This document shows positions 1,239-46,100 of a stretch of 64,000 bases of DNA, piece after piece. The position numbers and the translations under genes are program-made. Origin of the DNA: Escherichia phage Av-05. Location of the stretch: the sequence record KM190144, one strand, 5' to 3'. The notes beneath the pieces were generated by a model. The model saw only the letters and a program-made list of their open reading frames with translations, was not told where the DNA came from and ran no database searches. Positions within the stretch are counted from its first letter, which is position 1, and every line of letters starts with the position of its first letter.

Positions 1239-1264
1239 AAAACCCTGCAAAGCAGGGTTTTGTT
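1239..1264 (-). terminator. Terminator-like hairpin between Cys-rich gene and HigA-like gene
   Basis: AACCCTGC-AAA-GCAGGGTT perfect stem at 1241-1259, T-rich flank. Confidence 0.4.
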
Positions 1265-1268
1265 ACTA

Positions 1269-1472
1269 TCAGCATTTAGGCGAGCATTTATCGCACGGGC
1301 ATGAAATGCCGTGGAAACACAAACCTGTTCCGTCTTTCTTGACCCCTGTCCCACCACATTGGGGACAACTATCGTGTAAGCATTTTGTTTTTGTTGTCTC
1401 CTCTTCATCTTTATTAAAGAGGTTTTTCATAATCATTTTCTGTTGTTCAATCGTAAACATTTGCGTCCCCAA
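1269..1472 (-). CDS. Small Cys-rich (zinc-ribbon-like) protein
   Basis: 67 aa with CPQCGG...C...CPCDKCSPKC cysteine cluster. Confidence 0.4.
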   Translation of the reverse strand: MGTQMFTIEQQKMIMKNLFNKDEEETTKTKCLHDSCPQCGGTGVKKDGTGLCFHGISCPCDKCSPKC

Positions 1473-1753
1473 AATCTTTCAAGTGCTTCTGCCTCTTCCA
1501 TGTTTGGGAAGATACCATAGAAACAGAACTTACCTTTAGAGAAGTACGGAATAAATACCTGCCCATCAGATGTTTGAAACATCTTGTCAAAATTTGGTAG
1601 CTTCAGGTGGGATTTTATAGCCTCTTTAATACTTTTATCCCATTGATGCTGCCATTTACAGACTTTTAGGTACTCACTAATATTGTAAGAACCTACTCTC
1701 CCCACAATACTGGAAAGAAACTTTTTATTTTTACGAATAATCTTCTTTTTCAC
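1433..1753 (-). CDS. Hypothetical small basic protein (paralog A)
   Basis: GTG start with GAGG RBS; N-terminus KKKIIRKNKKFLSS resembles the next ORF. Confidence 0.4.
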   Translation of the reverse strand: MKKKIIRKNKKFLSSIVGRVGSYNISEYLKVCKWQHQWDKSIKEAIKSHLKLPNFDKMFQTSDGQVFIPYFSKGKFCFYGIFPNMEEAEALERFWGRKCLRLNNRK

Positions 1754-2036
1754 TCAAAGACCTCGTCTCTTCAAACTGCTCTGGTGTCAATAAACTTGTT
1801 CCTACACGACTGCCATTACCACACATAATGGGCACGGCAATCATGTGGCTATCCTTTTCTGCATTACTTAAATCAAGGTACTGCCCATAACGTTTAATAA
1901 GTCGATGTTTCATTTTTGACTTAGCAAAAGCCCTCTCATTATAGAGATAATCCTCAAGGTACAAATGCATTGCGTTTGCGGATTTTAAGGATTTCGATAA
2001 GAATAATTTATTACGCCGTACCAGTTTTTTCTTCAT
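1731..2036 (-). CDS. Hypothetical small basic protein (paralog B)
   Basis: ATG with GAGGG RBS; N-terminus MKKKLVRRNKLFLSK. Confidence 0.4.
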   Translation of the reverse strand: MKKKLVRRNKLFLSKSLKSANAMHLYLEDYLYNERAFAKSKMKHRLIKRYGQYLDLSNAEKDSHMIAVPIMCGNGSRVGTSLLTPEQFEETRSLSEKEDYS

Positions 2037-2221
2037 GCAACCCTCGCTTGTGCCTGTACATTGCTAAGGGCCATACAGAACTCACTATAAAGCATTTCCA
2101 TGCCCAGCCCCATGCAGTTTTTGGTGCATATACCTGCTCAAGTATTTTACTATTCTCCATCTCTGCGGTATGTACAAACCATACAGCAATATACAATGTA
2201 ACTATAATGTAGATAAAGCCA

Positions 2222-3283
2222 TTAATCATTCATCTTATCCCAGCACATTTGTTGCGCTGTCATCAAAACATCGGCAGCAAAGTTAAGATCTGTTGTCTTC
2301 GGTAAATGCGTGTTCTTGTACAGAGTGTTACGAATATAATCATCCTTCTCTTCTGCCCAAGCCAAGAGCTTCTCCAAAGACCATGCACCATTCCTGATTG
2401 CAAGAAGCTCCTGAGCATCAGGTCTTTTTACTAAGACTTTACCTTCTGCTAAGATCTCCTCAGCCATACGCATCAATCTTACCAAATGGAGGGCATGTTT
2501 GCAATCGTACCCGTACTTTTCTTCTAACTCATGCCGGACCGGATTTCTGTTTTCAACCCATGCCCAGTAGTTCTTATGCTTTTCCTTCGCTTGTTTATGG
2601 TCATCTGCCAGATATTTAACGATTAAAATTGGCTTACGTTTCTTATCCTCGTCAGAGAACTGCTCGTATGGAACTTTACGAATAGAACCATCAGAGTTAA
2701 ACAAACCAGCGTTGTCATGTGTACCAATCACACCATAGATATTATCACCCATCGGCAAAAAGACACACAACTTATTAAGGTCATCCAGCATTTTCTGGAA
2801 GTCTTTATGTTTTGTAAGATTATCATCCATCCACGAGTGTGTCAAGCGCATGAACTCTTTTTGTGTTGGTTGCTCTTTAGGTTGCGGGTTATTAATCCAT
2901 TTATTATGGCCTTTGATACGCTTAAGTTGCGCCATCGCGTACCCAGAAAATGTAAAAGCAACTTTGCTTGATAGAAGTTTTGGCGCTTGCTCGCGTAGGT
3001 ACTCGTAAACATCTGAAGTTTGCAGAATGTCACCTCTATCAACAAACATAAGCTCGATAATGTTTGGGTTCATATCAACGAACAGCTTCATATAGTTTGT
3101 TAGCTCATACAGCTTACCATCCTCTTCATCAATAAGAGTCATCTCCCTGTCAACGAAAAATGGGGTAAGAATGCTTTTAGGCTCTGCACAATAAATTCCG
3201 CGAATATCCACATCGGATGTTGGCAAGTTAGTTCCATAGGCAATACTGCCGGAGTAACAACGCATTAGTTCTAGTTTCTTCAT
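2222..3283 (-). CDS. Pol-beta superfamily nucleotidyltransferase
   Basis: N-terminal GSIAYGTNLPTSDVDIRG (GS...hG[ST]...SDxD minimal NTase motif); 353 aa. Confidence 0.5.
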   Translation of the reverse strand: MKKLELMRCYSGSIAYGTNLPTSDVDIRGIYCAEPKSILTPFFVDREMTLIDEEDGKLYELTNYMKLFVDMNPNIIELMFVDRGDILQTSDVYEYLREQAPKLLSSKVAFTFSGYAMAQLKRIKGHNKWINNPQPKEQPTQKEFMRLTHSWMDDNLTKHKDFQKMLDDLNKLCVFLPMGDNIYGVIGTHDNAGLFNSDGSIRKVPYEQFSDEDKKRKPILIVKYLADDHKQAKEKHKNYWAWVENRNPVRHELEEKYGYDCKHALHLVRLMRMAEEILAEGKVLVKRPDAQELLAIRNGAWSLEKLLAWAEEKDDYIRNTLYKNTHLPKTTDLNFAADVLMTAQQMCWDKMND

Positions 3284-45079: not shown

Positions 45080-45451
45080 TTAATTAGCCAATTCAGCATC
45101 CAACGACATTATATACTCAGGTAGCTTTCGAATGTTCTCATACAGCACAATCTCTCCGTGTGTCAATGGCCTGATTTCTTTATCCACACCAACATTATTA
45201 TGGTAATCCCAATCTGCATCGACATGGACGAAGACCAGCGTTCCTCTATTGCCAGTCTTAGCGGCCTTTCTTACGATAATCTCTCCGTCTATTGAAGGTA
45301 GGCATCTTTTAAAGAACTTGTTTAAAAGTTTTTGTTGAATTGCTTCTGCCAAGATCATTTTGTCTTGGCTATCTATGATTCTTTTAATTTCAGAGTTGTT
45401 TACTTCAACATCAATAAGTTGTGTTGTTGTCTGGGTTCCTTTTACTTTCAT
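45080..45451 (-). CDS. Hypothetical protein
   Basis: Track ORF 45080-45544 trimmed to Met MKVKGTQ (45451) so it does not overlap the HNH gene. Confidence 0.35.
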   Translation of the reverse strand: MKVKGTQTTTQLIDVEVNNSEIKRIIDSQDKMILAEAIQQKLLNKFFKRCLPSIDGEIIVRKAAKTGNRGTLVFVHVDADWDYHNNVGVDKEIRPLTHGEIVLYENIRKLPEYIMSLDAELAN

Positions 45452-45461
45452 TATTTTTACC

Positions 45462-46100
45462 TTACTCTGATATAGGGTCTGTTTTTGATCTTCTTTTCTG
45501 GACTTTCTTGGGTCTTCCTGTGATATGTGACCATGAGTATCCATTATTTAAAGAAGATATTGTATTTCTGGAAACTCCGAATAGTTCCGCAATAGCTTTG
45601 TGTGTTATCCCACAATCAATAAGCCGTACAATCTCTAAAACTTTCTCCTTTGTAAGGACAGATAAATGATAATCATCACCAAATTTTTGGATTCTCCCCA
45701 TACTATAAGCCACTGTATTGTTATGGCTATAGGTACACCACTCAAGATTTTCAACTCTATTATTATGTCTGTTACCATCTATGTGGTTTATAATTGGAAC
45801 TCCTAGCACAGTTTTTCTGCATTCTTTCTGCAATTCTGGAGAAGGAGGCTCTTTAAAAGCCTCCGCTACAAGTCTATGGACTGAAAAACTTTTCCCTGAA
45901 TCTTTACCCCTTTTGTACAAGCACACGCTCGGATAGCATTGTGGAGATAAATTTTCACTTTTAGTTTTTAAATATTTCCACATTCCTGATTTAAAAGATC
46001 TTACATTTCCATAATTACTTACTTGATAATCAGGATACCCTACAATATCCTTCCAAATTTCCTCTACTTCATCAGTGGGAATCTGCCCATGTGTATCCAC
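45462..46100 (-). CDS. Free-standing HNH homing endonuclease (NUMOD4-like N-terminus)
   Basis: GYPDYQVSNYGNVRS motif and NHIDGNRHNNRVENLEW HNH motif; GTG start overlaps 3' end of polymerase exon 3. Confidence 0.65.
   Translation of the reverse strand: MDTHGQIPTDEVEEIWKDIVGYPDYQVSNYGNVRSFKSGMWKYLKTKSENLSPQCYPSVCLYKRGKDSGKSFSVHRLVAEAFKEPPSPELQKECRKTVLGVPIINHIDGNRHNNRVENLEWCTYSHNNTVAYSMGRIQKFGDDYHLSVLTKEKVLEIVRLIDCGITHKAIAELFGVSRNTISSLNNGYSWSHITGRPKKVQKRRSKTDPISE

Follow-up and report, generated by a model that had tools for sequence, protein, structure and literature searches.

Two adjacent small basic proteins of Escherichia phage Av-05 share a Lys/Arg-rich N-terminal peptide and may stem from an old tandem duplication

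Phage antiterminators such as lambda N possess N-terminal arginine-rich arms that bind RNA. The internal proteins IPI, IPII and IPIII of phage T4 are small, basic, dispensable and diverse, and only an N-terminal capsid targeting sequence is common to them (PMC3012670). Here we report an in silico analysis of two adjacent open reading frames of Escherichia phage Av-05, in the following called A and B, which were found in a stretch of 64,000 nucleotides (sequence record KM190144, “the window”). Both are located on the minus strand, and both encode proteins of about equal length and about 11-13 kDa each. The initial annotation had described them as adjacent genes for small basic proteins with a nearly identical Lys/Arg-rich start, and on all these points it was confirmed (Table 1 and below). 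A0A076G7Y3, an uncharacterized protein of Escherichia phage Av-05 (genus Avunavirus), is 100% identical to the B protein. The genome note on Av-05 gives no function to either reading frame (PMC4463512).

Table 1. Features of the A/B locus and its neighbourhood (positions refer to the window).
Feature	Position	Strand	Remark
RlaP-family nucleotidyltransferase	3283..2222	minus	
U, 72-aa predicted membrane protein, phrog_11850	2011..2229	minus	conserved in Seunavirus relatives
Shine-Dalgarno of A, GAGGG, 4 nt before ATG	2041..2045	minus	read from sequence
ORF A, 101 aa, pI 9.6, ATG start	2036..1731	minus	phrog_12809 member, intact in 17/17 copies
Shared motif in A, codons 1-16: MKKKLVRRNKLFLSKS	1989..2036	minus	
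Shine-Dalgarno of B, GAGG, 7-nt spacer to GTG	1761..1764	minus	read from sequence
ORF B, 106 aa, pI 10.0, GTG start	1753..1433	minus	broken in several relatives
Shared motif in B, codons 1-16: MKKKIIRKNKKFLSSI	1706..1753	minus	
A/B overlap, 23 nt	1731..1753	minus	B in +1 frame relative to A
Z, 63-67 aa, ATG 1460 or TTG 1472, phrog_17149	1269..1472	minus	conserved in relatives
Hairpin AACCCTGC-TTT-GCAGGGTT then TTCT, GC-rich	1241..1259	minus	conserved; 10 nt past the stop of Z

To assess the coding status of both reading frames we compared 17 copies of the locus, namely the window and 16 others: phage vB_EcoM_TH18 (L001), an E. coli assembly contig (L002), Logan and ENA contigs (L007-L017) and metagenome contigs (L018-L020). 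For the non-overlapping parts of the genes the Nei-Gojobori estimates of omega are 0.14-0.37 for A and 0.11-0.29 for B, compared to 0.67-1.39 and many stops in the other two frames of the same DNA. A and B are both real genes, and purifying selection acts on them in their own frame only. The GenBank record of TH18 leaves an intact 106-aa homologue of B unannotated; it lies between peg155 and peg156 (L001 4237-4557, minus strand), which corresponds to about 99530-99850 in ON075799.1.

The fate of the two copies is different. While A is intact in every copy examined, six relatives (L007-L009, L018-L020) have a broken B, owing to frameshifts or deletions that arose independently at least three times. 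A single nucleotide of B is missing at codon 60 in L007-L009 (74 Logan blocks index this sequence), and B has suffered a 1-nt insertion and two 12-nt deletions in L019. L018 and L020 lack 88 nt of B, and in L020 a further 9 nt are deleted within the motif of B. A 12-nt deletion in L010 and L011 is in frame. Judged from these sequences, B is dispensable and decaying in several lineages, as would be the case for a partly redundant duplicate. The intact copies of B are still constrained. The “diversifying C-termini” proposed for the pair are contradicted by this finding, because the bodies of both proteins are under purifying selection (omega 0.11-0.37), and B is being lost rather than diversifying.

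The motif common to A and B reads MKKK(L/I)(V/I)R(R/K)NK(L/K)FLS. If both proteins are compared by BLASTP only residues 1-14 align (MKKKIIRKNKKFLS vs MKKKLVRRNKLFLS), with 10 out of 14 residues identical, 13 out of 14 positive and an E-value of 1e-4. Local alignment of the full proteins leads to z = 6.1, and none of 2000 shuffles matched the score. We further ranked the position-locked N-terminal pairs of all 276 open reading frames in the window with a length of 50 aa or more. A and B form the best among 37,950 pairs, with a score of 48 compared to 25 for the next one; if the ranking is narrowed to the 39 out of 276 reading frames that start with M[KR], the runner-up reaches 18. The match between A and B is therefore not due to the trivial MKKK at their start. 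A degenerate back-translation of the motif into DNA occurs in the window just at the two sites in A and B and in none of 100 shuffled sequences, and the same two sites are the only ones found by a peptide regular expression in all six frames.

At the nucleotide level A and B agree in 23 out of 42 positions over the 14 motif codons. Different codons are used at 8 out of the 10 identical residues, and the repeat finder detected no DNA repeat between the genes. From this it follows that the event is old and that the constraint acts on the protein and not on the RNA. The different codons are also the reason to reject the reservation, made together with the initial annotation, that the similarity might merely reflect A-rich codons. 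In A and B alike residues 1-20 contain eight Lys/Arg and no acidic residue, leading to a net charge of +8. The motif itself is composed of six Lys and two Arg, and residues 2-10 of A hold five Lys and two Arg. The ribosome-binding sites of A and B have CGAGG in common, and the Shine-Dalgarno of B within it is kept in TH18 and L002. The comparison of the sequences supports a homologous 5' module of A and B that comprises the Shine-Dalgarno, the start and the 14-16 initial codons.

Alignment of the A family to the B family by hhalign spans columns 1-31 (probability 80%, E 1.4e-5), and columns 1-32 if more sequences are included (E 2.5e-5). If the first 16 residues are taken away, Smith-Waterman alignment of A and B gives no signal (z about 0). 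The local hhalign score is then 11.3, compared to 9.9 ± 1.9 for a column-shuffle null in which 25 out of 150 shuffles reach that value. The position-locked hydropathy of both proteins correlates weakly (r 0.19-0.25, reached by 216 out of 3000 permutations), and MAFFT favours another, non-collinear alignment of the bodies. At the sequence level, by Smith-Waterman as well as by hhalign, the similarity is limited to the first residues, as had been considered from the outset. Regarding the proposed tandem duplication, the part that stands is the homologous 5' module, whereas a whole-gene duplication is left without a signal past residue 16.

A is a full-length member of phrog_12809, a family to which no function is assigned (E 2.4e-39, residues 1-101 on positions 1-106). 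B is not a clear member; its match is weak and covers residues 1-72 only (E 9.6e-4, 20.4 bits), and it is probably the N-terminal motif that contributes most of the score. A further hint arises from the AlphaFold2 models, which were run independently for A and B and are of low confidence (pLDDT 46 and 60). For A helices are predicted at residues 2-32, 34-37, 41-50, 56-59 and 85-99 and strands at 66-71 and 77-83, for B helices at residues 2-20, 25-35, 40-50, 55-58 and 85-95 and strands at 68-72 and 75-80. Over residues 21-95 the predicted secondary structure agrees at 57 out of 75 positions (76%), and no circular shift leads to more than 39. The equal size, the weak match of B to phrog_12809 and the same predicted order of elements hint at relatedness over the full length, while one must keep in mind that the agreement in secondary structure is soft evidence because of the low confidence of the models.

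A and B are part of a same-strand run of small genes, in the order RlaP-family nucleotidyltransferase, U, A, B, Z and a hairpin. The 3' end of U overlaps the start of A by 26 nt, with the same frame relation as that of A over B (+1), and Z overlaps the 3' end of B by 28 or 40 nt. Out-of-frame overlaps of 26, 23 and 28-40 nt along U, A, B and Z are far above the usual 1-4 nt. The last eight codons of A (LSEKEDYS) are the motif of B in another reading frame, and the stop of both U and A is a TAA that arises within CGT-AAN in the motif of the next gene. In L002 a T run is shorter by 1 nt; the eight-codon tail of A is gone, and a TGA is placed directly before the GTG of B. Z carries a CxxCxGxG zinc-finger motif of the DnaJ type (CPQCGGTG) and further Cys pairs. 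Its family phrog_17149 is widespread, with 151 phage records, mostly from Klebsiella phages.

The hairpin behind Z is probably the end of the transcription unit and a terminator, as its sequence suggests; it was not flagged by a consensus terminator scan because its T tract is short. A terminator-like hairpin is also located at 6690-6671 on the minus strand, directly followed by the sigma-70-like promoter TTGACA-17-TATTGT with a TG (6658-6630). This promoter is the best sigma-70-like one in the first 8 kb and lies upstream of the gene of a CCA-adding enzyme. It could possibly represent the start of a leftward transcription unit including A and B.

The window shows 91% DNA identity to vB_EcoM_TH18, a member of the Vequintavirinae, and the same value was obtained for three partial records from the same source. 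The nucleotidyltransferase, U and Z are also conserved in the Seunavirus phages PVP-SE1 (gp166-169), GAP31, 4MG and FENT2, where the genes between U and Z are unrelated to A and B, acidic and 51-58 aa long. This indicates that A and B occupy a replaceable accessory slot. The genes just downstream of the slot are annotated as virion structural proteins in PVP-SE1 and GAP31. The nucleotidyltransferase also varies: it has 353 aa in the window and TH18 and 699 aa in most relatives (L019 3394-5493, minus strand, also L002 and L007-L017). The long allele contains an insertion of 346 aa after ...EEKYGYD, which starts with CYSFDTEF and ends with ...SLHGN in front of CKHALHL. It matches LAGLIDADG_3 below threshold (20.5 bits vs a cutoff of 22.5). 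By its sequence this insertion looks like an intein, and the window would then hold the empty allele.

A search for the family in related phages, suggested along with the initial annotation, was successful in Av-05/TH18-like phages, while the Seunavirus relatives gave only the unrelated genes in the slot. According to the sequence collections searched the A/B pair is limited to Av-05/TH18-like Vequintavirinae, a rare lineage. Among 5.8 billion protein clusters a word-indexed search found two clusters for A and five for B, all belonging to their own families, and a combined A and B profile found no third type in them. The B profile was compared by HMMER to 1.84 billion representatives and retrieved only B itself and P0008. 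The latter was rejected as a relative of B; it is a spurious eukaryote-like repeat protein, and its score arises from five short GKSNITEYQMTC repeats. Neither peptide patterns nor the degenerate DNA motif matched anything in IMG/VR, and no match to A or B was found in 100,044 reference genomes or in complete E. coli genomes. A metagenome scan led to three loci, each of which is the A-B locus again. No genome with a single ancestral A/B-like copy was found, and neither body occurs with another N-terminus in any collection searched.

We therefore favor the following reading of the locus as the best explanation. A small accessory gene would have been duplicated in tandem long ago in the Av-05/TH18 lineage, and its start and ribosome-binding site would have been copied along with it. 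The two genes are situated in a variable slot, which is flanked on one side by the conserved gene of a small membrane protein and on the other by the conserved zinc-finger gene, and they would be made as separate proteins in a run of overlapping, probably translationally coupled genes. Each protein is predicted to possess an N-terminal helix with a charge of +8, followed by a small helical region, a β-hairpin and a helix. Selection may have held the N-terminal peptide almost constant, whereas the bodies changed until their relationship could no longer be seen in the sequence; this peptide would then be the shared working part. Most likely it would act as an arm for binding a polyanion (DNA or RNA) or for docking to a partner, and the bodies might provide different specificities. 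A is the maintained copy, and B is dispensable and on its way to being lost in several lineages. The homology of the motifs, the coding of both frames, the purifying selection on them, the narrow distribution of the pair and the decay of B are shown by the data above, whereas we infer the whole-gene duplication as well as any binding function of A and B. As the hints at full-length relatedness come from poor models and are soft evidence, we consider the chances of a whole-gene tandem duplication to be about even.

The alternative that survives best, possible although on the unlikely side in our view, is that only the 5' module, with its ribosome-binding site and 14-30 initial codons, was copied onto a neighbour with an unrelated body. 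The sequence similarity of A and B ends at residue 16-31, and the slot is a gene-replacement site within the subfamily. There is also a precedent in the same window. The free-standing HNH homing endonuclease ORF 46100..45462 (minus strand; NUMOD4, HNH_3 and HTH_7) starts with MDTHGQI, and ORF 45544..45080 (minus strand), which overlaps and adjoins it, starts with MDTHGHI, with about 19 out of 22 nt identical. In the ranking of N-terminal pairs these two come second, and from the sequence they look like the result of a gene insertion that copied the 5' end of the neighbour. Like A and B these are adjacent same-strand genes with the same first residues. The shared stretch is, however, short (7 aa), its DNA is still similar and one of the genes is a recognisable mobile gene, whereas A and B show no endonuclease signature. 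A copied 5' module would furthermore not account for the equal size of A and B and for the same order and positions of predicted helices and strands, and neither body turned up with a different N-terminus in any of the collections mentioned. Since the codons have diverged, the copying would have to be as old as a whole-gene duplication.

With regard to function, no assignment of A or B came from searches in Pfam, NCBIfam, PADLOC and PHROGs, in which the neighbouring genes were included. A sequence search of the PDB with both family profiles had no match, and comparison of the models to PDB and BFVD by Foldseek returned only the Av-05 entry of B itself. None of these searches, be it Pfam, NCBIfam, PADLOC, PDB or Foldseek, revealed a family, fold or motif typical of DNA or RNA binding. 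Weak matches to GIY-YIG, DUF1173, AbiGi, Cmr5 and Csx1 are all below threshold and were rejected. For the GIY-YIG nuclease (PF01541) B reaches 14.6 bits vs a cutoff of 22.6, over profile positions 43-70 out of 78 only, and the GIY...YIG motif is absent from its sequence. A helix-turn-helix or winged-helix protein was likewise dismissed, as there is no Pfam or NCBIfam HTH match and the low-confidence models led to HTH proteins only among the non-significant BFVD matches (E > 5). A signal peptide is not compatible with residues 11-19 of A and B, which are too polar, and a toxin-antitoxin pair not with two proteins that are both basic.

Residues 1-20 of A and B are helical in the low-confidence models. 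The amphipathicity of this helix is not significant, with a fraction of 0.15-0.22 of shuffles reaching the observed moment. A pI of about 10 and the charge of +8 in the first 20 residues make nucleic-acid binding by A and B plausible. Our best guess from the sequences is that the basic N-terminal peptide is a DNA- or RNA-binding or partner-docking arm.

The shared N-terminus could, in analogy to T4, also be a targeting or leader peptide, i.e. a portable address tag by which two small basic proteins unrelated to each other would be loaded into the virion or onto another common target. We regard this as improbable. A and B are adjacent, small, basic and non-essential, they are encoded at a variable locus with only the N-terminal peptide in common, and the virion structural annotations just downstream of the slot in PVP-SE1 and GAP31 would fit such a role. 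In T4 prohead cleavage after the capsid targeting sequence follows the rule L/I-x-E. No Glu is present in residues 1-26 of A or B, and the first one (E28 in A, E27 in B) occurs where the similarity ends. The sequence I25-S26-E27 of B agrees with the rule, but Y26-L27-E28 of A is outside of it. In addition, the T4 targeting sequence has no likeness to the A/B motif, and the motif occurs on no other protein of the window or of the databases searched, although several virion proteins would be expected to carry it. If the address tag were true, the slot could be a site where cassettes for injected anti-defence proteins are exchanged, and B would be in the course of being swapped out or lost.

It is very improbable that the conserved element is RNA, in the form of a shared translation-initiation region for efficient or co-regulated translation. 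Such an element would agree with CGAGG and A-rich Lys codons at both starts, and with the DNA of the N-terminal coding region being nearly invariant within each family. Between the families the identity of 23 out of 42 nt stands against 10 out of 14 residues, the differences between A and B are at synonymous positions, and the non-Lys residues N9, F12, L13 and S14 are conserved as well. The Rfam search of the window matched no family.

A fusion of A and B by recoding, either through a +1 frameshift at the GAAAAAG overlap in the window or through UGA readthrough in L002, is hardly credible. The GTG of B does follow in frame right after the TGA of A in L002, and the reading frame of B in the window is shifted by +1 from that of A across the A-rich run, but this frame relation varies among relatives, B has its own conserved Shine-Dalgarno and start, and several lineages lose B and keep A intact. 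A chance or compositional likeness of Lys-rich N-termini, or A and/or B not being genes, for which the commonness of MKK-type starts (M[KR] in 39 out of 276 reading frames) and the missing annotation of B in the TH18 record might be quoted, is effectively refuted by the wide margin of the first-ranked pair, by the shuffles of alignment and pattern, and by selection in the own frames only.

If the reading as a whole-gene duplication is true, a lineage-specific gene without known relatives was duplicated in a variable slot, one short peptide was frozen while the remaining protein diverged, and one copy then decays, which would provide a small and clean example of accessory-gene evolution. In the two uncharacterized proteins of Av-05/TH18, the basic peptide of 16 residues would be the stretch under the strongest constraint. 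The practical value of this observation is modest, and features of such a kind are ordinary in phage genomes, with no bearing on a long-standing open question.

Compared to described systems, A and B resemble the N-terminal RNA-binding arm of the lambda N type in having a strongly basic, helix-prone N-terminus on a small phage protein. The arm of lambda N is Arg-rich whereas the A/B motif is Lys-rich, and both are without sequence similarity, making this an analogy only. The closest known pattern is that of the T4 internal proteins, in which an N-terminal peptide is carried by otherwise dissimilar proteins; in the case of A and B the motif is present on two proteins only.
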